From: a virus
Lineage: Duplodnaviria; Caudoviricetes
Direction: 5' to 3' (one strand)
IMG/VR virus record: IMGVR_UViG_3300007609_000018
Span: 1 to 63,984 of that record
Length of the DNA stretch: 63,984 nt
A program made the translations under genes and the position numbers. This document shows, in pieces, positions 236-59,106 of this stretch. The first letter of the stretch is position 1. Each line of letters begins with the position of its first letter. The notes below the pieces were generated by a model that saw only the letters and a list, made by a program, of their open reading frames with translations, ran no database searches and had not been told where the DNA came from.

Positions 236-262
236 GTTGTGTTTATTCAGTTGTTGTAAGTA
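236..262 (+). other. attI-like cassette boundary site (GTTGTGTTTATTCAGTT-GTTGTAAGTA)
   Basis: GTTGTAAGTA 253-262 is the exact reverse complement of TACTTACAAC 862-871; the upstream part resembles 57351-57370. Confidence 0.6.
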
Positions 263-268
263 ATAAAA

Positions 269-847
269 TTAAAAAAGGGTAGGTGCATTTTTAAATCGGC
301 TCAATCTACCTTCTGCCATTTTAAAATACTTCTCGTTTAACTCACAGCCTATAAAGTTTCGCTCTTCCATTATTGCTGCTAATGCTGTACTTCCAGAACC
401 CATAAAAGGGTCAAAGATAGTATCACCTTGTTTAGTATTTTCTAACACCAATTTACGCATCAATGCCAACGGCTTTTGGCTTGGGTGGTCATAATATTCA
501 TCTTTTGCAAAACTCGCAGCTACTGTACTATTTATAAAGTAATGGTTATAAACTTTATAGGCTTTACCACCGTTTCTTTCTAATATAATTTCGTACATAG
601 AGCCTACACCACATTTTTTATCCCAAATATGTTTTGCTGTATAATCCAAAGGAAAGTCAACTTTAGCAGACCAAAAGATAATTTGAGGGCAATTATAATT
701 TTTAACCCAGTCTAATAATCCATCGTAATAATGGTATTCTTCTGCCATATAATCAGGGTATGGTGGGTCTGTTATAATTGCATCGAACTTTATCGTTGGC
801 AAAACATCTTCAAATCGCTTATTAAATAACTTTATTTCCATATTCAT
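269..847 (-). CDS. DNA N6-adenine/N4-cytosine methyltransferase (beta class)
   Basis: TDPPY catalytic motif, HPSQKP, DPFMGSGST SAM-binding motif. Confidence 0.92.
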   Translation of the reverse strand: MNMEIKLFNKRFEDVLPTIKFDAIITDPPYPDYMAEEYHYYDGLLDWVKNYNCPQIIFWSAKVDFPLDYTAKHIWDKKCGVGSMYEIILERNGGKAYKVYNHYFINSTVAASFAKDEYYDHPSQKPLALMRKLVLENTKQGDTIFDPFMGSGSTALAAIMEERNFIGCELNEKYFKMAEGRLSRFKNAPTLF

Positions 848-861
848 TTTTTTAATTTAAC

Positions 862-998
862 TACTTACAACAACGTATAAAGTTAATAGCTACTTTAAGC
901 GTGTTTAAGATGTTTATTTATTAATCTAAGTGCACTAGTGTACTTAATTAGGTTAGGTGCCTTAAACACGCTACTAACCTTATACAATTCCGTTACCG
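862..998 (+). repeat. attC-like imperfect inverted repeat #1
   Basis: TACAAC-aac-GTATAAAGTTAATAGC ... GCTACTAACCTTATAC-aattcc-GTTA; two A.C mismatches. Confidence 0.75.
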
Positions 999-1220
999 CC
1001 AATAATAAAGACGATACGATTGACCTCTTAACGAAGCATTGTTTTTGTCGCTTTCGTCTGAATTTTTACAACTTAATTTTGCTTTATCAAATTGATTTTT
1101 ATTTATCCTATTCTCAACTTGTTCGCTACCGATAAAATACCAATCTTCAAAATAAGCATTGTTTTTAAAAATCAATTTTTCACCTTTTGATAGTCGTTGT
1201 TCTATTTCATTTGCTTTCAT
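993..1220 (-). CDS. hypothetical protein
   Basis: 75-aa ORF co-oriented with its neighbours; stop codon overlaps the GTTA end of the attC-like site. Confidence 0.6.
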   Translation of the reverse strand: MKANEIEQRLSKGEKLIFKNNAYFEDWYFIGSEQVENRINKNQFDKAKLSCKNSDESDKNNASLRGQSYRLYYWR

Positions 1221-1326
1221 AATTAACTATTTCTTATCCAATCTAATATACAAATCCAAATTGAAATATTAAAACAAAGCCAAAGAAATAAAGATATAAA
1301 ATAAATAAATATTTTTACTTCTGTTG

Positions 1327-1719
1327 TCATTTAATTACAAGTTCAAATTCATTAGGCAAATAATCTACTAATTCATTCATTTTAGAACGGCTGCTTGTAA
1401 CATCTCTATAACCATCACCATCTATATCGGTGTGCCTATAACCTACTAATATGCAGCCTAAAATATCTTTATGAAAATTGCCGTGATGGATTAAAATCCA
1501 ATCCCTACCAACTACGTCTAAAATATGAAAATGCTCATTATACTTTGCAGAAGTTCTTTTAACTACTTTGTAACATCCTTTTGGTATGCAGCTTATACTT
1601 CTTTGATTGTCCGCCCATTCTAACTCTAAAGTGCAAGCTAATTTTTTTAATCCGTCAAATAAATAACCTAGTGTTTGCTCTTTTTCATAAGATAATCTTA
1701 TTAAAGTTAGTTGTTTCAT
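1327..1719 (-). CDS. DUF5675-family putative endolysin (L,D-peptidase-like)
   Basis: CTLE...SCIPKGCY...ILIHHGN...GCILVG motif; adjacent to membrane proteins. Confidence 0.75.
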   Translation of the reverse strand: MKQLTLIRLSYEKEQTLGYLFDGLKKLACTLELEWADNQRSISCIPKGCYKVVKRTSAKYNEHFHILDVVGRDWILIHHGNFHKDILGCILVGYRHTDIDGDGYRDVTSSRSKMNELVDYLPNEFELVIK

Positions 1720-1955
1720 TTCTTCAAGTCTTTTTCCTTAATTTTATGGTTGGTTGAGTTATTTTTATGAAACCAATAAACTCTTATTATCAAATAGATT
1801 AAACCAACTATTGAGAATGACAACTTAACTATTCCGTTAATATTGATTAGTGTTATATTTAAAAGTACACTTTGGATTATTTCAATAGTATTAAACCCCC
1901 ATACTACCATAACAGTAGTGTCTATATAACCTAAAATAGATTTAAACTTTTCCAT
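1716..1955 (-). CDS. small membrane protein, putative holin
   Basis: probable start MEKFK at 1955; two hydrophobic segments and a basic C-terminus; overlaps endolysin start. Confidence 0.5.
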   Translation of the reverse strand: MEKFKSILGYIDTTVMVVWGFNTIEIIQSVLLNITLININGIVKLSFSIVGLIYLIIRVYWFHKNNSTNHKIKEKDLKK

Positions 1956-2295
1956 TATCACTTTTAACCTTAGTAGTTTTATTAAATAGTAACTTAGCAA
2001 AAGCAGCACCAAAAATAAGCAATCCAACGCTTGAATAAGTTAGTTCTGTTCCTGTTAAAGAAGTAATAAATTTTGAACTTTCGGGTATCCAATTTAAAGT
2101 AAATGATATAGTGAAAGAACAAACTAAAGAGTATAAAAAACGTGGGTAATTCTCTTTAATCATTACAAGTAGCTTGAACTTACCATTGCTTATGCTTTCC
2201 CTTGCGTGTATTAAATTGTAAATAAAACCACCTAACATAATTATAGCGGTCATTATTCCTATTGTTTCCCAATGTATTTCGTTTACTACTATCAT
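1942..2295 (-). CDS. 3-TM membrane protein, putative holin
   Basis: three hydrophobic helices, basic tail, lysis cluster position. Confidence 0.5.
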   Translation of the reverse strand: MIVVNEIHWETIGIMTAIIMLGGFIYNLIHARESISNGKFKLLVMIKENYPRFLYSLVCSFTISFTLNWIPESSKFITSLTGTELTYSSVGLLIFGAAFAKLLFNKTTKVKSDNGKV

Positions 2296-2297
2296 TT

Positions 2298-4148: not shown

Positions 4149-7100
4149 TTATTTTAACCCTAACTCTATTTTTGCCTCGCTTTTTGCTTTTTGCCATAGT
4201 TTAGCTACATCTTTTTGAATTGTGGTTATTGGTTCGCCTCTTGATTCCATTTTTTTGTTCTTAAAGTACGGTTTTTTTGTAAATTCCATATAACCTTTTA
4301 TTCCCATGTATGTCCATTTTGGTTTTGGTAAACCATCTTGTGTTATTTCGAGTGGTGCGTTTAAGAATTTTTCACCTGCTAATTTTATGTATTCGTAATG
4401 CTCTTCTTCTGTAAGATACCTGTATTCTAATCCATTTTCGTCAAAATAATATCCTGCTGTGTTTTTTATCTTATTTGGAATTGCAGCGTTGTTTAATAAA
4501 AACATATCTACTTCGTAATTTTCCGAATCCTTACCTTTTCTATCTATGTAGTAGCTTATGTTTATGAATTGATCGCCTGGAAAGCCTTTTACCTCTTGTC
4601 CGTAAATATCTAATCTTGGCTTATTTACAAAATAATTTATTCCTGCTTTGTAAGCCATGTAACCTTTTAAATCTTGATAAGTGTAAGAATTACCTGTCAT
4701 TATTTTTTCAATCTGCCTTTTAAGGTTTATGTTCCAAAACAATACATCCCCAACTTGACCAATAGTCATATCTGCAATGTTTTTAATCAATCCTTTAAAT
4801 GGTTTGTTTTTTTGTGTATCAGTTATACTTTCCTCTGTTTCTTCGGCTTTTCTAAATGCTGTTCCAACTTCTGATACTAACTTAGATACACCTTGTAGGA
4901 TAGACATATCTAAAACCATTGTTGAAGTGTTTTTAGTTGCATCTAACCATAACATCCTACCTGTTTCGGCAGCTACTGCAAACCTTAAATTCATCTCATC
5001 TTCAGAGATAGATTTATCTGCCTTGTGTTTTCTCAATAAATCATTATAATTTCCAATCAACGTCAAGGGAATAGATAATGCAGGTATGTTTAAGAAATTT
5101 ATACCAGGGGTATAAGGTAATTTTAAAGTATATGCAGGTAGTGCTTCTTTTGCTTGTGTTCCATAGTTATCTGTTCCTGCCTTTAGACTTCCTGTTAAAT
5201 AAAATTCATCATCATCTTCGCCTGTTCTGCCTATAAATAAAGCACCTAAACCAAGTAAAGTTGCCGTTCCAAGCATTGCCCTCCCCATTTGTATTTCATA
5301 TTTCCTTGTGCCTCTTTCACCCATCATTGCAGAATTTTCAGCAAAACCACCAAAAAACTTACCACCATCTACTACTCTTTTCGATCTTGAATATATACCA
5401 GATACACTTAACCCATTGGCCCTTAATATGCCGTAAAAAGGTGCGTGGTCAAGCATATATTCCGATATGTTACCTACTACTGTTGTGAATGGAATATAAT
5501 TCATTGTAGCTAACTTTGATGCAATATTGTGATTAGATACGGTTGAAAGTAGTTTTGTGAACTTAGCTACTGTTCCGTTTCTTTCTCCTGTAAAGGTTTG
5601 CTGTTTAGCAATATCCATTAACTCATCTTTAGCATCTTCTGTTAAATCTTCAATGTTATTGTATATTATTTCTTGAAGTCTAATGGCTTTTTCCGAATTG
5701 GATAGTTTTTTACCAGACAGTTTTTCATATTGAGCAAACTCTTTATCAGCTTGTTTTTGAATTTTTTTAGTTTTATCGGTATCTGTGTTAAGTATTGCCA
5801 TTTGATTTGACACCATTGTTCTCAAATCTTTGCCTTTATATCCTTGATTAGAGTACACATCGTATAGATTCTGATACATTTCTCTTTCAAAATTAAGGTT
5901 TGTCATAAAAGCATCTTGTGCTGCCAAAAACCTACCAACATATCTTGCATAGTTATAAGGATTAAAAAATCCCAACTTAAACCTGTGTCCGTTATACTTT
6001 TCTCTTTCCAACTCACTTATGGTAAACTTGTTATCACGAGATATTGATTCTATTTGTTTGTAGTTTTGAGTTCCCTCTATCATGTTTGCAACGGCTAAAT
6101 TCCATGAGTTTGCCCAATTATTCGCATCTCTTCTGAATGTAAATAACCTCTGTATTGGGTTTCTTCTTTTGTCGTTAAAATATGAAGTAGGATTTAACAA
6201 ATCCGAAAACGGTGCTATTGCATAATTCCAAGCATTAGACCACATATTTATTACTGTGGTAAAAGGACCACTAAGCATTGAAGCGTATCTCAAGCCAACA
6301 AATACATTTACTAAGTTTACAACATTTTCTGGGTAAAGTTCTGTTATGTACTTTGCTATATCTCTTGTTGCCTTTGTTTCTATTGCACTACCTGGTCTTG
6401 ATAACTCTACATTTTCAGCTAATTCTTTTATTCTTTGAATTTGCTTGTTTGTTAATGGATTAGTAAGATTAAACTTATAAGCAAATAATTCTCTATTTAA
6501 TTTAGATGTAAAAGCACCATTGTTTATTGCTTCCATCATTTTATTAAGAACAGTTTTTCTTTTTCTTTTAACTGATGGCAACCTACTACTCCCCATAAAG
6601 TTAATAAGTGCTTTTTCTATTTTAGGTTTTAATGTCTTGTTTACTTCTGCCGTTATTTCATCGTTTAATTTTTTAGCCTCGCTTTTTGTTAAACCGTATT
6701 CATTCATTAATACCGTAACAATGTTCTGAACTTCTTTTTGAGTATTGGAATAATGCTTTCCTATCAATTCCTTAAAATCTATTTCATCTAATAGTTCTCT
6801 TTTTCTATTTTCAACCGTCAATTCTTCATCTGCCTCCTTAAATATTTTATCTGTATGGTTGTTATAGGCATCTTCTATTGTTTTCTTTTGCTCTTTTGTG
6901 GCTTTTTTATATCCTTGATGTTTTTTCAAAGCTGCCATTCCCTTTTTAATGACTTTAGCCTTATCTCCGCTTCTTTTTATTTCTTTTACACTTGCCTCTA
7001 TTGCTTTATAAAATGCTTGCTGTGCAGGTGTTAATTTAGCACTAAATTGAATTTCTGAAGAAACAACACTAAGGCTTATGTTTTTATATTTCTCTGCAAC

Positions 7101-10100
7101 TTTGTCTTTAAACTTTTGTGTCTTTTCTTTTGGCGATTTAGACATTTTTATTGCTTTCGCCTTTAACCTTTCTATTAACGATTTGTTTTCTTTTGCTAAA
7201 TCAACAACTTCTTTTTTTAGTCCATTTATAGTTTTTTCAAATTGAGTAAGCATTTCTCTTGCTGTTTCTCCTTTTGGACCTACTTTTTGATCAAGTGATT
7301 TTGTATTACTTTCATCTATTTTTCTTGATACTCTTTCTGCAATAGCTATCCCTTGACTTGCATATATTTTACTCATAAACTGAATACCTCTACCTGCTGT
7401 TCTGGCCATTTGGTCGAAAGTGTTTGCTATTGTTTTTTGCTTATTAAGTAGTTCATCAATCTTAGCCATTACGCTAATTTCATTATCTACATTTCTCATA
7501 TCAGATTCTTGAAGTGAATACTGATTCAATGCAGTTCCAAGTATCATAGACCTCATATCAAATGGCATATACTTAGTTTCATCCATTGCTAAAACTACCG
7601 CTTTGTCTATCCCCCCAAGTTGCTCTATTAAAGCATTTCCCATTTCAATAGTTTGCTGATTAGTTTGAACATCGTAATAAAGTCCAACTTCATCTTCTAT
7701 GGATTTTTTTGTTTCTGAACTAATACCTTTTGATAAGTTTACTATTTTATCTATTAATGATTTAGCTCTTTTTTGCAAATTACTATTGTTTGGATTAGAC
7801 GTATCTGGCTCTTTTGGTGGTGTTTTAGAGGGTTCTTTCGATTTAACTTCTTTAGATATTTCATTTCCAGATAACAATTCTGCTGCTGCTAAATCGGTAA
7901 ACTTTTCTAATGTTAAGTCTGCTAATTGCTCTGAACTCATGCTTGTTATTCCTAAAGCATTTTTTACTTTATCAAACAATTCCTTTATATAGGCTTTAAA
8001 TGCGTTCTCTTTGGCTTTTAAAAACTTCGCACCCTTTTCCCCTATTGCTTGTGCTAACGCTTCTTCTAATATGCTTTCCTTGCTATTATTGGCATATACA
8101 GGGTTGTTTCTTACGTCTTTTTCGTATTGAGTTCCTTCTACTAACTCTATCCCTTTATCATATACCTCTTTATGGTTGTTTTTAATGTATTCATTCCAGA
8201 TATGACCGAACTCGTGAATTGGTGTGTCTGTTGTTGCCTTATCTGTGTTTATGAATACTTCTCCATCTTTTACATATCCTAATGGCGGTATCGCTCCTTC
8301 AGTTAATTTTAAATCTTTTGCTATTTCTTCTGAATTTTTGAAGTTTACCTTAATATTCGGAAATGCTTTGTTTAGCACTTTTGTTAGTTTTTCAAGTGCT
8401 TTTTCAGATAGCTTTTGTTCTTTTGATTGTTCTTGGAATGGAACCTCAAAATCATCTACTTGTCCTTGCTCATTTTCGTCTGGCTTTTTGCTTTCATCTT
8501 TCTTTTTGCTTTCAATGCTTTTGCTGCTGCTCGGTAGCACTTCTCTATTGTTGATTCTTCCATGGTTTTTGTTTAAATAGTTATAAAAATAATCGTTTAC
8601 AGGTGGAAATACTGTATCTAAATATTCCTCTGTTTTTTCTGTGTCTAATAATCCATCTTCATTAACAAAGTTTTCAGCTATGTGTGCGTAAAATTCTTGC
8701 TCATAACTTTCAAACTCGTCAATACTTTCAACTGCTTCTTCTAATTCTACATCTTCCTCTAATTGCTCTTCTTTTGCTATTTTTTCTTTTTTAGCTTGTT
8801 TCTCTTTTTCTATTCTTTCCATTGCAGCAATATCCTCTTTAGTGTACTGTTGCTCTTGCTGCATTGTACCTAAATAAGTTTCTATCATTTCTGCTTTAGT
8901 GTTGTGGTTTCTCATTACATCTAATATCTCGTTTCTGTAAACAGAATCGTCTATATCGGTATTATACTCAACACTCTGATCACTTTTAAGACTTTCTATT
9001 AAGTCGTCTATTGTATTACCTTTTCTATTGGTTAATAAGGTCTTCTTCGCACCTGCCTCTTCTGATTTACCTACTTCTCGACCGCTTTTATCTAACCTGC
9101 TGCCTATTCCTAATTCTTGATAGATTTCATTCTTGTCCATTTTACCACCAAATATCAAATATTGAAGTATGTGTTGCAATGGACTTTTAGGTGTATCTGA
9201 ATTTATTTTATCTTTTATTTCATTTTCAATGGTTGCCGAACTTACCGCACCTATCATTTTATTCTCAATAGCTGAAAATTGAGTGTTTTTACCTATTGTT
9301 TTCTTTCCTTTCTTATTGTATTCGGATGTTCTTGATACTTCTTTTCCTGTGTCTTTGTTTTTTATAGTAACAGCTTTACCATCTTTGTTTACACCTACTT
9401 CAAATGTAGCATTTCTATATTCTACTTCTTTGGTTTCTACTACGGTTTCATTTTCTTTTTTAGCTTTTTCTATTCGCTTTTGACGTTCTGTTTTTTGTTC
9501 TTGTATGTCAGATTCTAAATCTTTGGTTTCTTGGCTTACATCGCTTTCCTTTGCCTTTTTTAACTCTTTTTTAGCTTTCTCTACTTCTGCTACAAATGGT
9601 TTTAAACTCTCGGTTGCAGCATCTTGACTTACTCTCTCATCAAATAATTGACCTTTGTTGCTTTTTCTTTCCCCAAACAAGTCTGCTTGATCCTCGTTTA
9701 TCTTTTTACCAAACTCTTTCTTTTTAGCTTCTAACTTTTGTCTTGCTTTAGATAATCTATCTTCTGCTTTAGATATTCTTTCCTCTTTCTGTTTTTGTTC
9801 TGGGGATTTTGTTTTTGGCTTTTCTTCTTCTAATATACCCTCTAAACCTGTTTCTACCTCCGTATCATCATCTAAAATGCCTTCTAATCCTGTTTCTACT
9901 GTTGGTTCAGTTTCTACTTCTGCCTTATTTTCTTCTATTTGCTCGTTTTTAGGCTCTCTAACCATAGTTAAGCCATCTTCTTGCATAACGAACCCATTAT
10001 CTTCATAAAGTTTCTGTAAACGGTCTTTATCGGTATCGGCATCTTCTGGTACTACTTTTAGTTTTATTTGTTTGCCATCTTCATCTGCTGCATCAGTTAG

Positions 10101-13100
10101 CTTTTTTAATGCTTTTTTTGCGTTTCCTCGACCTTTCTCTTTTGACTTGACACTTTCTAAGGTAATTCCGCTTTCATCTTCTGTAAGGATTATTTCTGTG
10201 CCATCTACGTCTAATGCTACACCTCCTTCCATTACATCTTCTATGCTTTCGGATTTACCTATTTTGTCTGCGAATTGTTTTGTTTCACTCGGTTCAGTAT
10301 CTCCAACCGTTTCTTTATCGGTAGTTGATTCAGTTTCTCCTTTAGCGATTTCCTCATCTGCGATTCGCTCAACTTCTTGCTGTTGTTCTGGTGTGTATTC
10401 TTCATATACTTCTTTTAATTTAATTTGATATGCTATTTCTTCGGCAGCTCTACCTCTAAATGTTCTTTTTTCTCCGCTTTCGGTTTCTAATGATACTGAA
10501 TAAGAACCATCTTCTTTTTGAGTAACCGCCATTTCTGGCTTACTAAAATTGTTTTTGTAGGTTTTGCCATTTACTGTAACAGTATTATCTTCTGCTATTT
10601 CAACTTCATCTTGTTTCTGTTGTAATATTCCATATTCTTTTAACTTCTTAGATGATATTTGGTTTTTGTTCCCTAACTCAATTATTTCGTTGCTTGTTTC
10701 AAACACGACTGTTTGTCCATCTAATCTTAATCTTCCTTCTTTACCGTCTTTTTCGTAAACGCTATCTTCATCAATAGATTCTGCAATAGTATTGTTACCG
10801 CCTAAATCATCTACTTCTTTTTCAGACTTTCCTGGAGTGTAATCTTTTTTAGATTGTACATTGAATTTACTTCTTGTGCTTTTTTCTTTTGTTGGCTCAT
10901 CTTCCAATGTTTCCTCAAAACCTGTTTCTGCTTCTTCTTCAGTAGATTGCTCTAATTTTGCTATTTCTGCATCATATTTAGCATTGATTGAATTTCTCTT
11001 GTTTTCAGCTAATTGCCATTTACCGGCACTTACTTTTATATCGAATTGTTCCTTTATTTTTACGGAAACATCCTTTAAAGACATACCACTTTCAAGCCAT
11101 AATTTAATTTTAGCTTGTATTAACTTTAATTCTTTAGCACTTATAAATCCTTTCTCGTATGCTTGTACTGCATCATTTCTTATTTCTTTTGATCCTTGAC
11201 CTACAATAGATAGTTCTCCGTCATTATAGTTCGTTAAATCTTCTTGAATAACTACATCTCCAAATTTCTGCTCTTTTAACTCACCTTCTCTTTCAGCTTC
11301 TATTTTTTCAATAGGAGATTGAGTTTTTTCTTTTTTAGGCTCTATCTTTCCTTTTTCGTTAAGGCCTAATATTTCTTTTTGCTTTTTATCTATTTCAGAT
11401 ATTTTAGCATTGTTTAGTGTTTTTAAATTCTTATCAGCTATTTCTTCGCCTTTCTTTTCTAACTCTGCTCTTTCTTTGCCTAATTCAAAGTATTCAAACT
11501 TTTTATTATCATCTAATTCATTTGGTAGCTGACTTGTAATTTCAGATGCTTCCTTAATGTCTTTTCTTGCTTGTGTAGCTTGTTCTTTGGTTATTTCTTG
11601 TTCTTTCTCTAATTCAGATAATACTTTTAGTGAGTTATCTTTTTTAAACGAACTATTGAATATAAAAGCATTATATCTTTTTTTACTGTTTAATTGGTTT
11701 TGTGTAGCTTCTATTGCACCACCAAAAATTCCCATTGCTGAACCTAATAAAAAGTTATCTCTAGCCTCTCTGTAATCAAATACGTTCTCTACTCTTGTTT
11801 CTGATGATAGGTTGTATGTTCCGGTTACACCCATTTCAGTTAGTTTCTCTAATACAGATTCTTCTAAACCTTCCCCAAAACCATTTTTAATTATAGCACT
11901 ACCATAATTTCTTATTGTGTTTATTGTGGCGTTTTTAAATCCTTCTTTAGCAATACTATTTCTAACTGAATTTTTTGTTATCTCTTTTACAAACTGTGAT
12001 TTAGAACCTTGAATTATTCTAGCCTCCATTCCAAATATCAAGTTGGTTAAACCTATAACTATGGAAACATCGTTTGAATATCTTGAGGCCTCGTCTTTTG
12101 TCATTCCCATTCCAATAGCTTGCTCGTATATGCTTTTTTGCATTTGCGCTGCTATTATTCCTGTTACTGCTGCTTTTGAACCTATTGTAGCTGACTTGCC
12201 TGTTAAACTCAATCCTTTTACCATTCCACTACCACCAACAAACATAGTTCCTAAGTCTGCTAATACATCTAATCCTTGGTCCACAAATTGATTAACATTA
12301 AACTTTTCTTTTGGTTTTGGTTTATTATCATCTGCTAAATACGCATTTTTTACTTCTGTGGCTTTTTCTTCTGATACCGCATACCCATCTTTATCTCTTA
12401 CTGATACTACATCACCTTCTTCGTTGAATAATATTTTAGAATCGCCATAGTCTGCCTCGAAATTAAACATACCTTGCTGAAATCTTGATGATTTAGTGAT
12501 TGTTCTTCTTTCTACATAATCTCTTGACATATCTTGAATGGCATTTGTCCAACCATAAGAAGGTGTGTCGGAGTAACTAAACGCTTGAAATCTATCTACT
12601 AATGAACCTGGCATTTGTAAAAGTCCACCCATTGTTTTTGTTACTGCATTTTGAACCGCTATAAGTGGTTTTGAAAAGAAAAATTCACTTTCTCTACCTT
12701 TTTCCTTAAATCTTTTTTTAAGTTTTTCTTCTCTTGCAGCCGTTTCGTTTTCTATTTTAGTAATGTATTCTTTTGCTAAACTATAATCGTCTTTTTTAAG
12801 CAAGTTTTTAGACGTTTCAATTAATTCTTCTTGTCTTTTTTCTATTTTAAATACATCGTTGAATAAAGGATCACTTTGTAGTTTTTCCAATTCCTTTATT
12901 TCTTCTTCACTTTTGTTTTCTTTCTCAAATAAGTTTGCGTATGCGTTTAAGTTTTTATAATCTATTATCTGCTCTTTTAAATCGTTTAATCGATTAAAAT
13001 TCCATTCGATAGCTTCTTGGTGGTGTAGGTATTTATCTTTATTAGCACCCTGTTCGTCTTTGTCTGTTGCAAAGAAATATTCGCCTCTCTCTCTACTTTT

Positions 13101-35067: not shown

Positions 35068-35087
35068 AATAATTTTTAAAAACTGCC

Positions 35088-36078: not shown

Positions 36079-36147
36079 AAAAACACAGAGGCAATTCAAC
36101 AACCTAAACCAAACTTTAAAAAAACATGACGAAAAACCGCCCCTGTG

Positions 36148-46439: not shown

Positions 46440-46454
46440 TTTTAATTAATTGAA

Positions 46455-46586
46455 ATGAATAACAAAGAAAAAATGATAGAACTATGTAAAAGCATGGTTG
46501 AATTAAACGAAAAAAGTAGTAGTGTCTTTGCTTCAATAAATAAAGCTATTTGGCAAAAAAAACTTGAATATTGGATTAGAGTTTAA
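46455..46586 (+). CDS. 43-aa cassette ORF (MNNKEKMIELCKSM...YWIRV)
   Basis: read manually; flanked by GTTGTGCGC 46431 and GCGCATAAC 46589. Confidence 0.5.
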   Translation: MNNKEKMIELCKSMVELNEKSSSVFASINKAIWQKKLEYWIRV

Positions 46587-46588: not shown

Positions 46589-46616
46589 GCGCATAACACC
46601 TTTATATAATCAACTA
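46589..46616 (-). other. attI-like cassette boundary site (flipped)
   Basis: GCGCATAAC-ACCTTTATATAATCAAC resembles the reverse complement of the other boundary sites. Confidence 0.5.
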
Positions 46617-46686
46617 AACCAAACCTTAATGCAAACAATATCAATAAATTATAATTTGAAATGGCAGTTTAAAAAACCAAAAAACA

Positions 46687-52797: not shown

Positions 52798-53883
52798 TTA
52801 ATTTTCTTTTATAAATGTTACTAAATCTTTTATTTCTTGTATAGTTGCTTGCTCGTAGAAATCTCTTGCATTTTCATACTTTAATCCTATTGTTGCAATA
52901 GCGGTTTCTATTTGGTCCTTGTCTTTTATATCTATGCCTTTTAAAGCATTGTATATTGACATATACTCTTTTTTATCTCGAACTACTCCTTCAGTAAGTT
53001 TTAAATCATCTATAAAAGATAAATCAATGACTTCTTCAAACTCTGCATCTTCTACTTGGTTCTTCTTGTCAATCTTTTCAGTTCCTCTCTTGATTACGTT
53101 TTCTACATCTTTTGCAGTTGATTCATTGGTTTTAATCTTTTTACCACCACGTTCTATCATTTCATCTTTTGGATCTGCTTCATCTACTAAATTCATTAAC
53201 TGTCCAACTCTATCTGCGTGTGCTGTGTTTTTAGGCAATACTTTCCAAAGAAGTCTTATCCCTGTTTTCTTAATCATCTCCCCTAAGTGTACTCCTGTCC
53301 AAAGTGAATTGTTTTTATTACTCTTGTAAGATTGAGATGTATTTCTAATTTCCCATATTCTTTCAATTGGTGTAAATAAACATTGCTTTGTTCCATCACT
53401 AAGTAAACAAGTTGCTAATACACCATACTCTTTGCCTCTTTTGCTTGCACTAAGTCCTTTAGCGTAATATGGTTTATATTTTATTAAATCATCAAAAGCG
53501 TAATCATATTCAAAATCATCGTTTTCATAAATAACGTGAGCATTTGGTTTTTTTGCTATACCTAATACTTCCATCATTGTAATTAATCCTTTGTAGTCTG
53601 GGTCAAGGCAACACTCAACTACTTTTCCTTTTTTTCTTGGAACTAAGTGCGCTTGTTGCAGTACAGGATTCAAACTTAATCCAGATAGTGCTACGTTAAG
53701 TATAGCCTTTTTTGCACTCTCTGGTGTGCAGCTTGCTAAATAACTGTTTGATTGAAACGCCTGTAAAGCATACCCAACTTCTTTCTTAAATGCTATTTGC
53801 GTTTCTTTAGGCAAATAACTTACAAATTCTCTTTTTACATCTTCTGATGCAATTTCACTCTTTAATTTTACTATGTTACTCAT
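52798..53883 (-). CDS. recT: RecT-family single-strand annealing protein
   Basis: GLSLNPVLQQAHLVPR...YKGL...W...EMIKKTGIR....LP. Confidence 0.85.
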   Translation of the reverse strand: MSNIVKLKSEIASEDVKREFVSYLPKETQIAFKKEVGYALQAFQSNSYLASCTPESAKKAILNVALSGLSLNPVLQQAHLVPRKKGKVVECCLDPDYKGLITMMEVLGIAKKPNAHVIYENDDFEYDYAFDDLIKYKPYYAKGLSASKRGKEYGVLATCLLSDGTKQCLFTPIERIWEIRNTSQSYKSNKNNSLWTGVHLGEMIKKTGIRLLWKVLPKNTAHADRVGQLMNLVDEADPKDEMIERGGKKIKTNESTAKDVENVIKRGTEKIDKKNQVEDAEFEEVIDLSFIDDLKLTEGVVRDKKEYMSIYNALKGIDIKDKDQIETAIATIGLKYENARDFYEQATIQEIKDLVTFIKEN

Positions 53884-53934
53884 AACTTTTTTGTTTTAAA
53901 ATGGTTAATTAATTTTATTTATAGACGTTTATGT

Positions 53935-53965
53935 TTTATCTTTTGTATATTTTATAGTTAGCTAC
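53935..53965 (+). other. attI-like cassette boundary site
   Basis: TTTTGTATATTTTATA-GTTAGCTAC; near-complement of GTGGCTAAC 54165-54173. Confidence 0.5.
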
Positions 53966-54152
53966 AATTATCCAACGCACGTTCTATCGTGTAAAAACCT
54001 AACCTATCACCATTTACTATTTTCCTGCATTTAGTTTCAAAATCCCTCTCGTCTTGCCCTAACACAATATAACCGCTGAACTCTCTCACTATTGGTGCTT
54101 TGTGCTTTACGTTATTAATTGCTTGTTCAATTTGTTTATCTGTATATGCCAT
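53958..54152 (-). CDS. hypothetical cassette protein
   Basis: 64 aa; stop codon is the TAA of the boundary core. Confidence 0.6.
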   Translation of the reverse strand: MAYTDKQIEQAINNVKHKAPIVREFSGYIVLGQDERDFETKCRKIVNGDRLGFYTIERALDNCS

Positions 54153-54164
54153 AGCTCTTTAAAA

Positions 54165-54260
54165 GTGGCTAACACAAAATATAGTGAATAGCCGATTAAA
54201 CATTTATTTCAATAGCCAAGTTTTAGGTGTCGGCTACTCACCATACATTCAACGTTATAA
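54165..54260 (+). repeat. attC-like imperfect inverted repeat #4
   Basis: GCTAAC-acaaaa-TATAGTGAATAGCCG ... CGGCTACTCACCATA-cattcaac-GTTATAA. Confidence 0.75.
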
Positions 54261-54803
54261 AAACTTTTCTATTTGTTTATATTGTGCCGTTTTCATTCCT
54301 GCATGTGCTATTGCTATACAATCGCAAATATGCTCCATTCTTGCTTTAATTAAATCGCCTTTCTTATTCCTTTCATAAGGAAAGTTTGGATAATTAGTTT
54401 CTACCCACTTCATCATATCGTCTTTACTTGCATTTATTCTTCCAACAGTAGCTTTTTTTACCTCCGTTGGTGTTACTTGTATTGCATCTGGCTTTAATAA
54501 TGCTATAAACGCACAACTCAACCCGTAGCTTTTCATGCCGTTTGAACTTTGACTTCCACTTGGTGTTTCTGCAAATGTAATAATTGGCTTGATTTCTTCT
54601 GTTTTAGCGAATATCTCGTCTATTACTTGCTTGGCTCTAGATACTGTGTCAGAACTTGCTCTAATCTGCTTATTTTTAGTTTTTTCAGTTTTAACTAAAC
54701 TCCAATCTTGAGGTACAAACTTACCATTCTCTATTACACCCCAAACAAATCCTGTATTTGCCATACTAGGGTCTATTACTAAAACTCTTGTTTCTTTACT
54801 CAT
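54255..54803 (-). CDS. ruvC: RuvC-like Holliday junction resolvase
   Basis: VIDPSMANTG, FAETP, TPTEVKKA...ASKDDM, EHICDCIAIA. Confidence 0.8.
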   Translation of the reverse strand: MSKETRVLVIDPSMANTGFVWGVIENGKFVPQDWSLVKTEKTKNKQIRASSDTVSRAKQVIDEIFAKTEEIKPIITFAETPSGSQSSNGMKSYGLSCAFIALLKPDAIQVTPTEVKKATVGRINASKDDMMKWVETNYPNFPYERNKKGDLIKARMEHICDCIAIAHAGMKTAQYKQIEKFL

Positions 54804-54806
54804 AGC

Positions 54807-55547
54807 TTATTTAATTAATTCTTTAACAATATTCTTTGTGTGTATTGGAAACGAACTTTTGAGCATCCAATTTAGAAACCCTGGTTCATCATACACGGAC
54901 TTATCTTTGTGCTTTCCAATATTAAATCTAACAATACCTTTTTCATCTTCATAGAATGCACTACAAAATTTGTATGGTTTCTTTTTAGCAAAGAAGTAAT
55001 CACTTATTTCTTTTTTAGTTAAATGGCCTGTATCATTTAAAGTAAATACATCTCTTTGTTTGCTTAATATTTCTAAAGTAGCGTTACAATCCCCTAATGC
55101 TGAATGTGAGTTTTCCATTTCTTTTCCAAAATATCTACTATACACCCCAGATAGTGTTTGAGGATTTAACTCTTTCTCTATTTCGTAGCTATCTAAGACG
55201 TTTAAACCGTCAAGCGACCATTCTATACCACACCTTAAAAATTCTTCTATTAGAAGTGGAATATCGAACCTTTTACAATTATATCCTGCTATGTCGCAAT
55301 ATTTAATGGATTCATACAAGCTATTTGCTATTTGTGAAAATGTAGGACAATCTATTACATCTTCATTGCTTATGCTATGAACTTCGGTAGCTTCTTCTGG
55401 AATTGATATAGTAGGATTAATCTTTCTTACCTTTTCTTCCTTATCTCCGTTTTCAAATATTTTAATAAATCCAAACTCTACAATTCTATCTTTTGCAATG
55501 TCTGTTCCTGTTGTTTCTAAATCGAATATTACTAATGGTCTGCTCAT
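54807..55547 (-). CDS. DnaQ-like 3'-5' exonuclease (DEDDh)
   Basis: FDLETTG, GYNCKRFD, HSALGD motifs; start MSRPLV at 55547 couples with the upstream stop. Confidence 0.9.
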   Translation of the reverse strand: MSRPLVIFDLETTGTDIAKDRIVEFGFIKIFENGDKEEKVRKINPTISIPEEATEVHSISNEDVIDCPTFSQIANSLYESIKYCDIAGYNCKRFDIPLLIEEFLRCGIEWSLDGLNVLDSYEIEKELNPQTLSGVYSRYFGKEMENSHSALGDCNATLEILSKQRDVFTLNDTGHLTKKEISDYFFAKKKPYKFCSAFYEDEKGIVRFNIGKHKDKSVYDEPGFLNWMLKSSFPIHTKNIVKELIK

Positions 55548-55906
55548 AATGTTAGTTCTTTTTGTGTTAGTGCAAAATATAGGTTTTGAAGTTGGTGTAC
55601 ATATTGTATATTGCATAATGTATCAGACTTGTAATAAACGTACCATAAACCATTAATATATCCTATATTGTAAACGCTTGATTCCCAAAAATCATATCCA
55701 TATCCTAATTTCTTAAATCGAAATTTCAACAACCATTCTTCTATTAGTGGTATTCCAAATATTTCATCTTCACTACAATCAATATCATCAGAACCGCTTT
55801 CGTCAGAAGATAATTCTGCCCCTCCTTTCCAAATACGATACACATATTGAACTATACCAAACTCGTCTTGCACCCAATTACCTATCCTTAATTCTTTTGC
55901 TTTCAT
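55544..55906 (-). CDS. hypothetical phage protein (ELRIGN / YVHQLQNLYFAL family)
   Basis: terminal motifs recalled from Bacteroidetes phage proteins. Confidence 0.65.
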   Translation of the reverse strand: MKAKELRIGNWVQDEFGIVQYVYRIWKGGAELSSDESGSDDIDCSEDEIFGIPLIEEWLLKFRFKKLGYGYDFWESSVYNIGYINGLWYVYYKSDTLCNIQYVHQLQNLYFALTQKELTL

Positions 55907-55907
55907 A

Positions 55908-56210
55908 TCATTTCCCTTTAAAATCGTTTCTAATTACTACTCCTTGTGATTCCTCAAACATATAAATTATACAATACTTTGTATCTTCTGGATATGTCTT
56001 TGGTAATAATGAATTTAATTTACCTATTCTTCTTATAGGCCCTTCGTAAATTATCTTTTTTGGTTTTGGTACTCCATTATTGCTACAAGTGCCATCTTTT
56101 ACTAACCAATTTATAGGTTTACTTAGTCCTAAAAACTTTATTGTTTGTTTATATTCTCCTACTATTTGTGTTCTCATCTTCCTACTGTTTAAACCATTCT
56201 TTAAAATCAA
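55908..56210 (-). CDS. hypothetical protein
   Basis: ORF in operon. Confidence 0.5.
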   Translation of the reverse strand: MILKNGLNSRKMRTQIVGEYKQTIKFLGLSKPINWLVKDGTCSNNGVPKPKKIIYEGPIRRIGKLNSLLPKTYPEDTKYCIIYMFEESQGVVIRNDFKGK

Positions 56211-57291
56211 CTGTATCTAATAGTTCTTTCACTAATGTTTCTGGTGGACAGTCTTTTATTCGGTTGTTTAGTTGTAATTTTCCATATCTGTTTTTCTTAT
56301 TGTCTATTCTACCACCTTCAGATATGTCTAAATCATCAAACCTTAACTCTTCTAACTCTATCATTTCTTTTGCTATCAAGTTCTTTACTTCCAATTCTCT
56401 TGATTTACATTCTTTTGAAATTTCATTTAAGCATTTCCACTTGTAAGCTAATTCTAAATGCTCGTGTGTTCCAATACCCCAATCCGGATCAGTTCTATAT
56501 CTTTCACTCATAAATTGCTTATAAGTTTCCGTATTGTCTGGGTCCGGTTCTAATTTCTGAATACCACTTGGAGTGTCTTGATTTACAAATGAAACATATC
56601 CTTCTTCTTTTGCTATCTCTTTTGCAGGTAATACTTTGTCATACCAAAATCTTTTAGAAATGTCTATAATTTTGTTTTTAAGGGATTTTATTCCATCACT
56701 ATCGCCTGGTATCGGAAATGTTTTAAAGTTTCTTAGATTGTCAAATATTACTGTTTCTGCGTAATCTAACTCAAAGATTATCATTCCTTGTGTTGGTTGT
56801 GCAATATATTCTGGTGGTATTCCATCTTCCCACTTATTTAAAGCAAATGAATTGGCTGTTTTAATCTCTAATACAGATTCTTTTTCTTCTACCTCACCTG
56901 TGGCTAAGTTTACACTTCCCTTATTCATTAATCTGTCAATAGAGTAAAATAGCCATGGATAATCTGGATTAACTGCATATCCATTTATCTTTCTACACCT
57001 TCGGATTATTTTACCTTCATTGAAGTTTTCAATATATCCATCTTCCGTTCCATCTATGTATTGCCAAATGTTAGCTATCATATCTTCCATTTGCCTACCC
57101 CAAAATAAATGTTGGTTATCCTTTAGTGGTTTTAAAACACCTATCTTCTCATAGAACACTTCTACTGCTGATTTATAAGGGTTTAATCCTAACATAGCAC
57201 TTATGTCTGAACCACCTATGCCGTTTAGCCTAAACTCATACCATTCTCGACTATGGGTTTCTATTCTGTGTATTTGTATTTTACTTTTCAT
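56182..57291 (-). CDS. YqaJ/lambda-exonuclease-family recombinase nuclease
   Basis: W...R.NGIGGSD..A.LGLNPYKS, WG..ME, SIDR, LEIKT, Y.AQ motifs. Confidence 0.9.
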   Translation of the reverse strand: MKSKIQIHRIETHSREWYEFRLNGIGGSDISAMLGLNPYKSAVEVFYEKIGVLKPLKDNQHLFWGRQMEDMIANIWQYIDGTEDGYIENFNEGKIIRRCRKINGYAVNPDYPWLFYSIDRLMNKGSVNLATGEVEEKESVLEIKTANSFALNKWEDGIPPEYIAQPTQGMIIFELDYAETVIFDNLRNFKTFPIPGDSDGIKSLKNKIIDISKRFWYDKVLPAKEIAKEEGYVSFVNQDTPSGIQKLEPDPDNTETYKQFMSERYRTDPDWGIGTHEHLELAYKWKCLNEISKECKSRELEVKNLIAKEMIELEELRFDDLDISEGGRIDNKKNRYGKLQLNNRIKDCPPETLVKELLDTVDFKEWFKQ

Positions 57292-57350
57292 ATTTTTCTA
57301 TATTTTCAAACTATATTTTTTTGATTATAAATACTTTATAGTTTGGTTGG

Positions 57351-57377
57351 GTTGTTTATATTCAGATGTTACCTGCC
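57351..57377 (+). other. attI-like cassette boundary site
   Basis: GTTGTTTATATTCAGAT-GTTACCTGCC; 57368-57377 is the exact complement of GGCAGGTAAC 57591-57600. Confidence 0.65.
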
Positions 57378-57378
57378 A

Positions 57379-57645
57379 TTATACAGCAGACAGGCTATTC
57401 CAAGTTTTTAATATTGTGAACTTATACCAAGCTCTATCAAAATAATAGCCTTTCTTTGCAAGTATAAGTTCAATCAAATGTTGTTCGGCTTCTTTTTCAG
57501 TTTCAAACCCTTCTTTAGGTTGTTCATCAATCGTTTTCACATCTCTACTACCAATATTTCCAACTTGGTAATAAACGTAAATAAAATAACGGCAGGTAAC
57601 AGCACCTATATTCAATAGCGGTTTTTGTGGTTCATTTGAGTTCAT
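57379..57645 (-). CDS. hypothetical cassette protein, start codon inside attC-like site
   Basis: N-terminal MNSNEPQKPLLNIGAV is encoded by the hairpin. Confidence 0.6.
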   Translation of the reverse strand: MNSNEPQKPLLNIGAVTCRYFIYVYYQVGNIGSRDVKTIDEQPKEGFETEKEAEQHLIELILAKKGYYFDRAWYKFTILKTWNSLSAV

Positions 57646-57725
57646 ATTTTCTAATTTAATTTTGTGAATAATTCAAGTTTTGTACTTCTAAGTTCGCAAC
57701 TAAATATAGCTGCGAACCGTTATAG
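57591..57725 (+). repeat. attC-like imperfect inverted repeat #5
   Basis: GGTAAC-agcac-CTATATTCAATAGCG ... CGCAACTAAATATAG-ctgcgaacc-GTTATAG. Confidence 0.75.
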
Positions 57726-58085
57726 GTCATTCATCTCCCAACCTTTACAGCTTGCAATTTTATTTGAAAGAGCAAGAATTTCATCGGTGTTGTAAACCAC
57801 ATAAAGTGCGTCATCTTCAAATAAGCCATCACGCTGACCGCATTCAAAGTCAAGTTTAAATTCAGTTTTTTCTTTTTGGCCTTTATCGAGTATATCAAAA
57901 AAATTACCATAAGAATTTGCATCAACATTTCCAATTAAATCTTCATAAAAAAAGTCTATTGGCTCATCTCCATTAAAAATCGTATCATTCTTAATTTTAA
58001 GCCCTGTAAAAATACAAGGTTCATATTTTGAATAAAGCGTTCCACTTGGGAGTTTATAAAATTCTTGTTTAGTAACTATTCTCAT
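57720..58085 (-). CDS. hypothetical cassette protein
   Basis: 121 aa, bounded by GTTATAGG 57719 and CCTATAAT 58104. Confidence 0.65.
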   Translation of the reverse strand: MRIVTKQEFYKLPSGTLYSKYEPCIFTGLKIKNDTIFNGDEPIDFFYEDLIGNVDANSYGNFFDILDKGQKEKTEFKLDFECGQRDGLFEDDALYVVYNTDEILALSNKIASCKGWEMNDL

Positions 58086-58101
58086 TATTTCTAAGTAAAA
58101 C

Positions 58102-58233
58102 GCCCTATAATAAAGTGTATAGCAAATTGTGGGCGTGTTACAGTTTGCTACTTTGTACCTTTAACTTAATGCTTTGCAAGCTGTTAGGTAGATACTTTTA
58201 ATCCCACAACTTGCCATATTCAAATCGTTACCC
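58102..58233 (+). repeat. attC-like imperfect inverted repeat #6 (AAC core changed to AAT)
   Basis: CTATAAT-aaagtg-TATAGCAAATTGTGGG ... CCCACAACTTGCCATA-ttcaaatc-GTTA. Confidence 0.75.
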
Positions 58234-58239
58234 GTAATA

Positions 58240-58653
58240 CTATCTACGGAATAATCTAACACCGTCTACTTCTTCAAAATCTAAATCTCTTACTTTGCTT
58301 AAAACAGAATTTCCAAATTCAGAAAGTTTATCGTACAATTCCTTTAAGCGATTTTCATCCTCTCTATTATCACATAATTCTACCCATCTTCTTATAAGTT
58401 CTCTGTTTAATTCTGGGTGGTTTAATGAGTTGTTTTTAAGTTTATGAAATTCTGCACTCCAATATGCTACCGTATCGCTTATTTGTTTTACTTTCATTTC
58501 AAGTGGGTAGCATCTATCGCTTACATCACTACTTACTAACCTAAGCACTCCATCACTAACACTTGTAATTCTGTTTTCCTCTGTTTCCATTATTTGTTGA
58601 AGTTTGAAATCACAGAAACACCAATCTTCTTTTTTAAACTTTAAATTTTTCAT
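58240..58653 (-). CDS. hypothetical protein
   Basis: 137-aa ORF between the two arrays. Confidence 0.65.
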   Translation of the reverse strand: MKNLKFKKEDWCFCDFKLQQIMETEENRITSVSDGVLRLVSSDVSDRCYPLEMKVKQISDTVAYWSAEFHKLKNNSLNHPELNRELIRRWVELCDNREDENRLKELYDKLSEFGNSVLSKVRDLDFEEVDGVRLFRR

Positions 58654-58669
58654 CTGTTATATTTTTTAA

Positions 58670-58697
58670 GTTGTTTATTATTAGATTTTAGCAGTAA
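58670..58697 (+). other. degenerate attI-like boundary site
   Basis: GTTGTTTATTATTAGAT-TTTAGCAGTA versus GTTGGCAGTA expected from the complement of 58973-58982. Confidence 0.4.
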
Positions 58698-58700
58698 TAG

Positions 58701-59033
58701 CTACTCACTACCGTTAAACCTTAGTGGTTGCTTACCCAATAGTGCAATCATTTCTTCGGTTCGTTTCTCGTTATACTCTTGGTATTCTTTAGGTGTCATT
58801 AACTTATAACCATCGCTTTCAAATACTTGAAACCTTTTTCGTAGTTTCTTATTAATCCAAGAGTAATAACGTTCCCAACTATCTAAATCTCTTGGCTTAA
58901 ACATATCTCCTGCCGTATCAATATCGTCAAGTAATTCCCAAAGAAATTCGGCTTGCTTTCTGTCAATTTTACTACTGCCAACAACAGGTGTAGTGCATTG
59001 CTCTGTTTTGTTCTTTTTGCTATCGTCTTTCAT
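58701..59033 (-). CDS. hypothetical cassette protein, start codon inside attC-like site
   Basis: N-terminal MKDDSKKNKTEQCTTPVV is encoded by the hairpin. Confidence 0.6.
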   Translation of the reverse strand: MKDDSKKNKTEQCTTPVVGSSKIDRKQAEFLWELLDDIDTAGDMFKPRDLDSWERYYSWINKKLRKRFQVFESDGYKLMTPKEYQEYNEKRTEEMIALLGKQPLRFNGSE

Positions 59034-59106
59034 TTATCTAGATTTAAGTGTTACTAATTAAGTTCGTGCTGTAAGGTTGTCACACACCATACCCAAAACG
59101 TTATAC
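58974..59106 (+). repeat. attC-like imperfect inverted repeat #7
   Basis: GCCAAC-aaca-GGTGTAGTGCATTGC ... GTCACACACCATACC-caaaac-GTTATAC. Confidence 0.6.

Follow-up and report, generated by a model that had tools for sequence, protein, structure and literature searches.

Integrase-less clusters of attC recombination sites (CALINs) have been described in virulent phages, including Polaribacter phage P12002L with its two methyltransferase genes, and one of the two P12002L attC sites was reported to be recombined by IntI1 (Qi et al., 2023; PMC9892861). Here we analyze seven attC-like hairpins in a 63,984-bp IMG/VR virus record (Caudoviricetes; IMGVR_UViG_3300007609_000018), which is referred to over its whole length as the window. 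We consider it likely that they serve as attC-type recombination sites, recognized by their structure, within an integron-like cassette system widespread among Bacteroidota and the phages that infect them, and the window phage apparently exchanges accessory genes as cassettes while lacking a gene for the enzyme. The original prediction, drawn from the letters of the window, knew of no such feature in described phages, a statement overtaken by the account of phage CALINs published in 2023 (PMC9892861).

Integrons are rare in Bacteroidetes according to IntegronFinder 2.0 (PMC9024848), and two reviews list the phylum among those that bear integrons (PMC8618304, PMC9668308). Beyond these three sources and PMC9892861, we found no literature on an integron-like system specific to Bacteroidota or its phages. 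The hairpins resemble integron and CALIN sites in having inverse AAC...GTT cores around an imperfect palindrome, whose inner stem is set off by unpaired spacers and capped by a variable loop, and in folding strand-specifically. The cassettes are delimited within the core, each begins with bases that complement its own distal box, and together they form arrays of single accessory genes, orphan DNA methyltransferases included, in a phage that lacks an integrase. The R helix of a textbook attC site has 7 bp, whereas the one described here reaches up to 14 bp. Also unlike an integron, the window has its sites spread over five loci rather than in one array, and the bacterial recombinases linked to the family are short (278-306 aa) and score below the cut-off for integron integrases. 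A complete integron, defined by an adjacent intI with the IntI-specific domain and an attI site, is not present in the window.

Two other systems invite comparison. Xer recombinases act on the folded single-strand attP of CTX phage, and Xer-dependent dif modules exist. The likeness is that a single phage strand, once folded, would be the substrate of a host Xer-family tyrosine recombinase supplied in trans; the difference is that whole elements integrate at dif, not single-gene cassettes in arrays. No dif-like 28-bp site was noted here, and no search aimed at one was made; the string GCGCATAA may resemble a dif/Xer site. PeSL elements, reportedly treated by Comeau et al. in 2014, are said to be mobile regulatory cassettes of T4-type phages. 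In the account of Arbiol et al. (2010; PMC2839356), they are repeated stem-loops between small non-essential genes of hyperplastic regions, with modular shuffling and proposed circles, all of which recalls the hairpins studied here. A PeSL in that account is a promoter plus a terminator and recombines by homology (PMC2839356), whereas the window hairpins carry no such signature, the best phage junctions share only 4-6 bases and the cassette ends are self-complementary.

The hairpin family

The original prediction placed seven palindromes in the window, each with an opening AAC core, a closing GTT core and arms of 10-16 bp. All seven were found at about the positions it gave and with the cores it described, but the arms form a 17-bp helix. 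The arms share sequence, roughly TAACG..GTATGGTnAGTAGC and GCTATTnACTATAT..GTTA. On the transcribed strand, the order is UAACG, a spacer, an arm like GUAUGGUnAGUAGC, the loop, the returning arm GCUAUUnACUAUAU, a short spacer and GUUA, and the UAA of UAACG is frequently the stop codon of the upstream gene (993-1220, 54255-54803, 57720-58085 and 59113-60171). Every site lies on the transcribed (sense) strand, where the non-Watson-Crick arm positions of the best sites are all G·U. The opposite strand scored far below the sense strand (28 versus 86, 24 versus 128 and 19 versus 117 bits) with R1, the covariance model described below, which also gave the scores of the individual sites:

856-1001, minus strand: attC-like hairpin S1; TAAC core 992-995, GTT core 872-874 / 869-871; R1 114.6 bits, training member; folded
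35973-36085, minus strand: attC-like hairpin S2; R1 32.5 bits, E 9e-5, outside the training set; RNA fold z -3.5; 5' core AAAC instead of TAACG
54158-54263, minus strand: attC-like hairpin S3; R1 86.4 bits, training member; 17-bp stem with three non-Watson-Crick positions, each of them G·T on the minus strand
57585-57728, minus strand: attC-like hairpin S4; R1 116.8 bits, training member
58096-58236, minus strand: attC-like hairpin S5; R1 127.7 bits, training member; 3' core ATTA instead of GTTA
58967-59109, minus strand: degenerate attC-like site S6; R1 42.5 bits, E 4e-7, outside the training set; sequence conserved, yet 5 of 17 stem pairs broken; start of gene 58701-59033 inside the site
46242-46439, plus strand: attC-like hairpin S8, in the plus-strand gene block; 44-codon open reading frame (ORF) in the loop; read directly

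Six of these seven sites are firm and one, S8, is marginal. At S8, R1 returned a partial match at 46328-46446 on the plus strand (19 bits, E 0.12) that overlaps 46242-46439; by eye the wider version fits the family better, with TAAC, a 5-nt spacer, GTATAACAAA paired with TTTGTTATAC, and then GTTGTTG.

R1 was trained on S1, S3, S4 and S5 together with a copy from Cellulophaga phage phi18:3, which make up five of seven aligned sequences; S2 and a copy from phi46:3 were omitted because they were misaligned in the seven-sequence alignments. The model comprises the TAAC/GTTA pairs and the 17-bp stem, and the window was searched with filters off. In the training alignment, 89.5% of positions were paired, compared with 79.8% in shuffles, and 8 of the 21 pairs had changed on both sides. 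The model recovered the two untrained sites S6 and S2 with the E values listed above, as well as the phi46:3 copy left out of training (38.8 bits). At E<0.01, its matches across the window and 10 further loci came to 34 copies. When these 34 copies, the five training rows included, were fitted to R1, 90.7% of cells were paired versus 70.3% in shuffles, and 14 of the 17 stem pairs changed on both sides. The core pairs A-U, A-U and C-G were kept in 34, 34 and 33 copies, respectively, and two stem positions were fixed as G·U (26 and 32 of the 34), almost never alternating with G-C or A-U.

The element consists of an outer R pair, unpaired spacers of about 6 and 5 nt, a 17-bp L helix and a variable loop of 40-160 nt. 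Read on its own strand, it runs from an invariant AAC|G through the first spacer, the stem with its two fixed G·T pairs, the loop, the returning arm and the second spacer to GTT-N6/7-AGT; this box is followed by the cargo gene and then by a closing box, ATT-N6/7-AAC, complementary to it. The model alignment contains no conserved bulges, and the two fixed G·T pairs leave the other strand mispaired (C·A).

The specificity of R1 was controlled with 80 of 89 IMG/VR stretches that contain an exact 14-mer of one stem arm (664 kb). Matches at E<=1e-4 occurred at only 4 of the 80 loci, so the exact 14-mer scan had returned mostly chance matches. R1 matched all five phage records searched as well as P12002L, whose methyltransferase genes are flanked by family members. 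Its matches in P12002L, at 38023-38096, 38867-38942, 30897-30961 and 29996-30062, are candidates for the published attC sites. The covariance-model scan called for by the original prediction thus found the family in other phages of Flavobacteriia-type hosts and, as detailed below, in Bacteroidota chromosomes.

Generic counts, taken by themselves, are what chance palindromes in AT-rich intergenic DNA would give, equal to those of shuffled or mismatched controls. Descriptors with an AAC core, a 13-bp stem and a GTT core numbered 15 and 19 per strand versus 8-18 and 10-26 in 20 shuffles, 16-bp stems numbered 22 and 49 versus 13-37 and 28-49 in 12 shuffles, and inverted repeats of at least 9 nt bracketed 49 genes versus a mean of 40.1 (29-52) in mismatched pairings; none of these is an excess. 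RNA fold z-scores were modest (-3.5, -3.2, -2.1, -2.1, -1.1 and, for the degenerate S6 at 58970-59110, +1.45, no better than shuffles), and single-stranded DNA folds were weak (z -0.4 to -2.3). We dropped the generic counts because they are too permissive for DNA of ~31% GC. With such counts at chance and the folds modest, significance rests on the conservation of the family and on other genomes, not on the window alone. A family recognizable at the sequence level and showing covariation, untrained sites recovered at E values of 4e-7 and 9e-5, and further members in other phages and in bacteria leave chance with next to no credibility as an explanation.

Cassette limits and cassette ends

DNA and protein searches of the phage collection detected no close relatives of the window phage among deposited phages, and none were found through its YqaJ protein in IMG/VR or through a 121-aa cassette protein. 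DNA similarity to other phages is confined to short patches shared with phages of Cellulophaga, Polaribacter, Olleya and Flavobacterium. Because an empty-site comparison is therefore impossible for the window phage, we compared other phage lineages instead. As the original prediction anticipated for related phages, different genes were found exactly at the junctions, in phi18:3, in phi13:2 and phi19:3, and in four Cellulophaga arrays. In the otherwise unrelated phi18:3, 86% identity is confined to window positions 53953-54253/54257, which comprise S3 and a 64-aa gene; the shared block starts with GTTAGC and ends with ACGTTA. In two IMG/VR loci (L122:515-1000 and L136), a hairpin 91% identical to window positions 54159-54258 precedes another gene, whose closing end box is nearly identical. 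The same recombination site thus occurs with different cargo.

The four related Cellulophaga phages (phi18:3, phi13:2, phi19:3 and phi46:3) each carry several family members in a hypervariable stretch. The content of these stretches is almost wholly different, with a few shared modules and with DNA methylases among the small genes. The cleanest module, 371 bp long and 99% identical in phi13:2 and phi19:3, where it occurs in different order, is limited by AACG and TAACGG and shares only 4-6 bases at each junction. Similarity blocks start and end in AACG or CGTT, which places the crossover within the core, as expected for exchange at G|TT, to the level of the core rather than of a single bond. 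The end point of all four arrays is (T/C)AAC, after which comes one conserved block, AATGTTATATAAC...; about 35 nt beyond this end, and on the same strand, come a conserved 78-aa gene and a 428-aa tyrosine recombinase (L062:2000-6732 for phi18:3; L063, L064 and L065 for the others). Array, conserved site and recombinase together look like a complete phage-borne platform in these Cellulophaga Pachyviridae; NCBIfam did not identify the recombinase as an integron integrase, the best match being XerD at 29 bits.

Two further features of phi18:3 were observed. Just before the shared cassette, at L002:3303-3322 on the minus strand, GTTTAGCA-TTAT-TGCTAAC forms a tiny back-to-back palindrome of both core types, which may be the remnant of an emptied site. 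At L002:3460-4013 (gp107-gp108), a stretch of ~550 bp with a 130-aa gene is ~90% identical in phi4:1, Nekkels, phi19:1, phi10:1 and phi13:1 and represents another promiscuous module among otherwise different Cellulophaga phages, with no hairpin noted.

In the window itself, about eight cassettes are predicted at five loci, one fewer than originally claimed. An array of about four cassettes occupies 57.4-59.1 kb, and single cassettes lie at 0.25-1.0, 35.1-36.1, 46.2-46.6 and 53.96-54.26 kb. The units and their ends are as follows:

250-995, minus strand: cassette 1; S1, N6/N4 DNA methyltransferase gene 269-847 (PF01555) and end box TTACTTACAACAAC (250-263); 14-nt end-to-end helix
35059-36079, minus strand: cassette 2; S2, C5 DNA methylase-like gene 35088-35921 (PF00145) and end box ..ATAGGTAAC (35059-35072); 9-nt helix
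46428-46597, plus strand: cargo of cassette 8; ORF 46455-46586 between GTTGTGCGC and GCGCATAAC; 9-nt helix with one G·T, weak alone (window-wide frequency 0.015)
53957-54257, minus strand: cassette 3; S3 and 64-aa gene 53958-54152; sole block common to the window and phi18:3
57368-57722, minus strand: cassette 4; S4 and ORF 57379-57645 (start codon in the loop); ends GTTACCTGCCGTTA / TAATGGCAGGTAAC, an inverted repeat; last of the array, abutting the YqaJ exonuclease gene; 14-nt helix (window-wide frequency 0.0007)
57719-58230, minus strand: cassette 5; S5 and gene 57720-58085 (phrog_11827, function not annotated); 8-nt helix
58227-59103, minus strand: further array genes 58701-59033 and 58240-58653; putative cassette limits; read directly
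57292-57367, minus strand: candidate insertion-platform (attI-like) side; sequence after the last AAC of the array (AUCUGAAUAUAAACAACCCAACCAAAC...)

The last two array genes are divided by a short hairpin at 58681-58721 that starts with TAACGG, contains AGTAGCTATT and has a fold z-score of -1.67 but no R1 match. With three R1 matches, this short hairpin and no integrase, the array at 57585-59109 qualifies as a CALIN (two or more sites clustered within a few kb, without a neighboring integrase), while the other four loci are single sites. Six attI-like sites had also been proposed. What stands of them is a loose motif shared after the last AAC, and nothing beyond it: the sequence that follows the array appears loosely similar to those at 46598 (plus strand), 249 (minus) and 35058 (minus) and in Cellulophaga phages. 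At two cassette loci, a motif like AUAUAA(A/U)CAAC..AACCAAAC comes after the last AAC (57340-57367, minus; 46598-46625, plus), and a similar string occurs at 36095-36115 (plus), within a minus-strand region.

The six bracketing pairs of complementary cores that had been reported are present. We searched for the best complementary AAC-ending 14-mer within 1500 nt downstream of each element; for six of the seven, the best partner lies at the 3' end of the adjacent gene, with end helices of 14, 9, 9, 14, 8 and 9 nt (at most one mismatch, G·T allowed). S6 (58967-59109) has no convincing partner within this distance, and three of the six window pairs are individually unremarkable. We then used 16 phage cassettes delimited only by consecutive model matches. 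A full 14-nt end helix was found in six of them, and the mean length was 9.5 compared with 6.6 in mismatched pairs (permutation p=0.0003). A long end helix occurred in 6 of 17 intervals of the three bacterial arrays described below, with a mean of 7.7 versus 5.5 (p=0.0011). The long helix is missing from the other 10 phage cassettes and 11 bacterial intervals, which may include intervals with several cassettes. The ends of the methyltransferase cassette 1 are GTTGTTGTAAGTAGT / ATTACTTACAACAAC in the window and GTTATATAC / GTATATAAC in an 87%-identical homologue on metagenome contig L067; both boxes of the homologue differ from those of the window and are again complementary to each other, a compensatory change. 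Complementary ends that change together fit a unit cut at two AAC|G cores whose ends pair once joined, which is the logic of an integron cassette.

Arrays of this kind could also arise from regulatory repeats that recombine homologously, as PeSLs do. The hairpins would then be signals for transcription or RNA processing, and the phage RecT and YqaJ would shuffle genes between copies, sometimes releasing circles. The elements are intergenic, repeated, alike in sequence and located in hypervariable regions, RecT, YqaJ exonuclease and a RuvC-like resolvase are encoded next to the array, and PeSL-mediated shuffling and mini-circles are documented (PMC2839356). Some Cellulophaga modules, moreover, have limits away from hairpins. 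A third module has hairpin-free edges at another conserved intergenic motif, and a two-gene module, whose right end lies inside the conserved arm of the next hairpin, has its left edge in an AAAAC run, again at a different conserved intergenic motif. Homologous recombination thus also shapes the Cellulophaga arrays. However, the Bacteroidetes-type -7 motif TAnnTTTG, a consensus from which a phage-specific promoter may differ, is absent within 60 nt of six of the seven elements, and consensus scans of 53800-59300 yielded no terminator-like sites and 14 sigma-70-like sites versus 24.7 in shuffles. The cleanest module shares only AACG(G) at its junctions, which is too short for annealing-based exchange. 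Homology-driven shuffling also leaves unexplained the complementary, covarying cassette ends and the bacterial arrays that lie beside tyrosine recombinases with genes on the opposite strand. We consider it unlikely as the explanation of the hairpins, and possible as a contributor.

Bacterial arrays and linked recombinases

R1 matches at E<=1e-4 were detected in 40 of 151 sampled Bacteroidota genomes and were often clustered. In three of the first five genomes examined (G047, G071 and G067), an array of the element lies 0.5-4.4 kb upstream of a 278-306-aa recombinase on the same strand. These arrays of the ~143-nt element are:

G047, contig C33, 370500-389500: bacterial array (locus L100)
G071, contig C44, 8000-27500: bacterial array (locus L101)
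G067, contig C14, 33500-50284: bacterial array (locus L102)

In the array of G047, weak 71-nt matches were seen ~55 nt before several full elements, with the box AATTCTTCTTCAAC before four of them.

Five further genomes gave a recombinase neighbor within about 0.8-1.6 kb in two cases (G084 and G058, open frames of 290 and 389 aa), one of them in the other orientation, and a third at 9 kb. A partial IMG/VR phage contig (L089; G001:C1:11000-21589) contains four to five family elements with a 309-aa Xer-like recombinase (8273-9202, minus strand) between them. For the recombinases of G047, G071 and G067, the best family was NF040815, 'tyrosine recombinase/integron integrase' (219-237 bits). The solved structures nearest to the G047 enzyme are XerA, an XerC-like protein and IntI4, and the array-linked recombinases resemble XerA/XerC/XerD roughly as closely as they do IntI.

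The identity of these enzymes bears on transposition of the IS200/IS605 or palindrome-associated-element type, in which an HUH (Y1) transposase, guided by the hairpin, would cut beside TAAC. Such transposition would account for insertion beside a fixed tetranucleotide, the lack of target duplication and the strand-specific hairpins. Yet a Y1 transposase (PF01797) is absent from the window, each unit has one hairpin instead of one per end, and the enzymes linked to the family elsewhere are tyrosine recombinases of the Xer/IntI type; we regard this route as very improbable.

The bacterial arrays also speak to the idea that the hairpins are purely RNA-level structures of a polycistronic mRNA, such as RNase III-type processing sites, stabilizers or translational operators, with the boxes as long-range processing stems and the G·U pairs as ordinary RNA pairs. 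What is seen in phages fits this idea: the element is on the sense strand in all phage copies, its stem departs there from Watson-Crick pairing only by G·U, it folds better as RNA than as DNA (z -3.5 and -3.2 versus -2.3 and -2.3), and some cassettes have a start codon in the loop. In the three bacterial arrays, however, the element and its flanking ORFs are on opposite strands, which is the canonical attC orientation. The bacterial copies (n=20) nevertheless keep the cores in all 20 cases, the two G·U positions in 15 and 19, and pairing in 93.6% of cells. Polarity and both G·U positions are thus maintained although the genes are on the other strand, which is the main argument against an RNA-only role and indicates that strand polarity belongs to the element as DNA rather than to the mRNA. 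In addition, near-constant G·U at two positions is unusual for a mere RNA stem, no Rfam family matched, and the cassette limits at AAC|G in other phages would be left unexplained. A purely RNA-level function is accordingly quite improbable, although an RNA-processing role may coexist with one in recombination.

In several cassettes, the annotated start codon lies inside the hairpin loop (window 57585-57645 and 58967-59033; L063:2424-2500). The returning arm and the GTT box of these loop-start cassettes are read in one frame and encode similar peptides (..LNIGAVT.., ..TTPVVGS.., ..LNIPVVM..) as putative N-termini.

The integron-cassette reading is supported by the presence of the family in phages and chromosomes, by junctions in AAC|G and by complementary ends. 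A number of results weigh against it, among them the generic counts, the modest folds, the module edges away from hairpins and the missing or unremarkable end helices given above. As the original prediction stated, the window lacks an integrase: there were no candidates at E<=1 for tyrosine, serine or Y1 recombinases (PF00589, PF00239 and PF01797), and tblastn of the window with the phi18:3 recombinase gave a best E of 0.56. The window does encode homologous-recombination proteins, namely RecT, YqaJ exonuclease and a RuvC-like resolvase, and no recombinase was detected in P12002L. The recombinases of G047, G071 and G067 score 203-216 bits against the integron integrase model TIGR02249, below its cut-off of 265, and their alignment to it falls into two segments, with about positions 177-240 passed over; canonical integron integrases present in three of the sampled genomes lie on contigs other than those of the R1 matches listed. 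The arms differ from those of integron sites: their sequence is conserved, two of their pairs are fixed as G·T, and extrahelical bases are not evident. In the window and all phage arrays examined, cargo genes are on the element's own strand, with the hairpin before the ORF, which is inverted relative to canonical and bacterial arrays. Finally, the homologue of a window methyltransferase in L008 (81% aa identity) has no hairpin, and its similarity stops at the ORF; we set it aside as evidence on cassette limits.

Directly supported by our comparisons are a conserved family with its structure and strand polarity, the cassette limits, ends that are complementary and change in compensation, and an association in other genomes with arrays flanked by recombinases. 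From these we infer a circular intermediate, the exact cleavage point, the acting enzyme and a possible continuing mobility in the window phage. In the mechanism we propose, a cassette would be cut out at two AAC|G cores and then circularized. Circularization would join the end boxes into an R helix of up to 14 bp beside the stem, completing the folded site, and a tyrosine recombinase would exchange strands within AAC|G / C|GTT on the folded single strand bearing the G·T pairs. Given that the window has no recombinase gene, any exchange would need an enzyme supplied in trans, which could be an Xer/IntI-like integrase of the host or one from a co-infecting element.

The window phage and the wider cassette pool

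The window is estimated by CheckV to be complete and has no terminal repeats. Its genes lie on the minus strand throughout, except for a plus-strand block at 39.6-47.3 kb, and those for replication and recombination encode DnaB helicase, primase, RecT, YqaJ exonuclease, a DnaQ-like exonuclease and a RuvC-like resolvase. Three genes encode DNA methyltransferases (269-847, N6/N4; 35088-35921, C5; 51496-52602, C5), and two of the three lie inside hairpin-bounded cassettes, where they are plausibly anti-restriction cargo. The match of the 35088-35921 product to the C5 DNA methylase profile PF00145 covers only the first 113 of 324 positions. Rfam and tRNA scans of the window found nothing, and k-mer enrichment revealed no highly repeated words.

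Other features of the window were noted in passing. The structural block includes a 3231-aa ORF (4149-13844, minus strand). A 211-aa protein encoded at 36435-37070 (minus) has a class II tRNA-synthetase (His-type) core domain (PF13393, E 7e-19), an unusual phage cargo. Between S2 and the C5 methylase-like gene, a GC-rich hairpin at 35945-35966 (GCCCTCGTACATCACGCAGGGC), followed by GGTTTT on the plus strand, is terminator-like and opposes the local gene direction.

A broader reading, which we put forward tentatively and toward which we are slightly more doubtful than convinced, is that Bacteroidota have their own lineage of integron-like platforms, with a cassette pool common to them and their phages. 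Such platforms may combine a short Xer/IntI-like integrase without the IntI-specific segment, attC-like sites of ~140 nt and a covarying R box of 14 bp, and standard integron finders may miss most of them. On this broader reading, the Cellulophaga Pachyviridae appear to carry the whole platform, that is, a recombinase, one conserved insertion site and an array. Virulent phages with integrase-less cassettes would use the host enzyme during infection to gain or swap anti-defense genes such as methyltransferases, and phage cassettes may be fixed in inverted orientation so that read-through transcription of the phage expresses them.

If the sites are active, a lytic phage can exchange single accessory genes, DNA methyltransferases included, site-specifically at several loci and without an enzyme of its own. 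This would provide a concrete mechanism for part of phage mosaicism and for the fast turnover of anti-defense genes, and it would tie the phage gene pool directly to the cassette arrays of host chromosomes. Given that the element is present in 40 of the 151 genomes sampled, yet surveys call integrons rare in the phylum, a large cassette reservoir may have been overlooked, and a covariance model of the hairpin family would make this reservoir directly searchable. The wider implication is a Bacteroidota-wide cassette system held in common with phages, which merits a dedicated survey.

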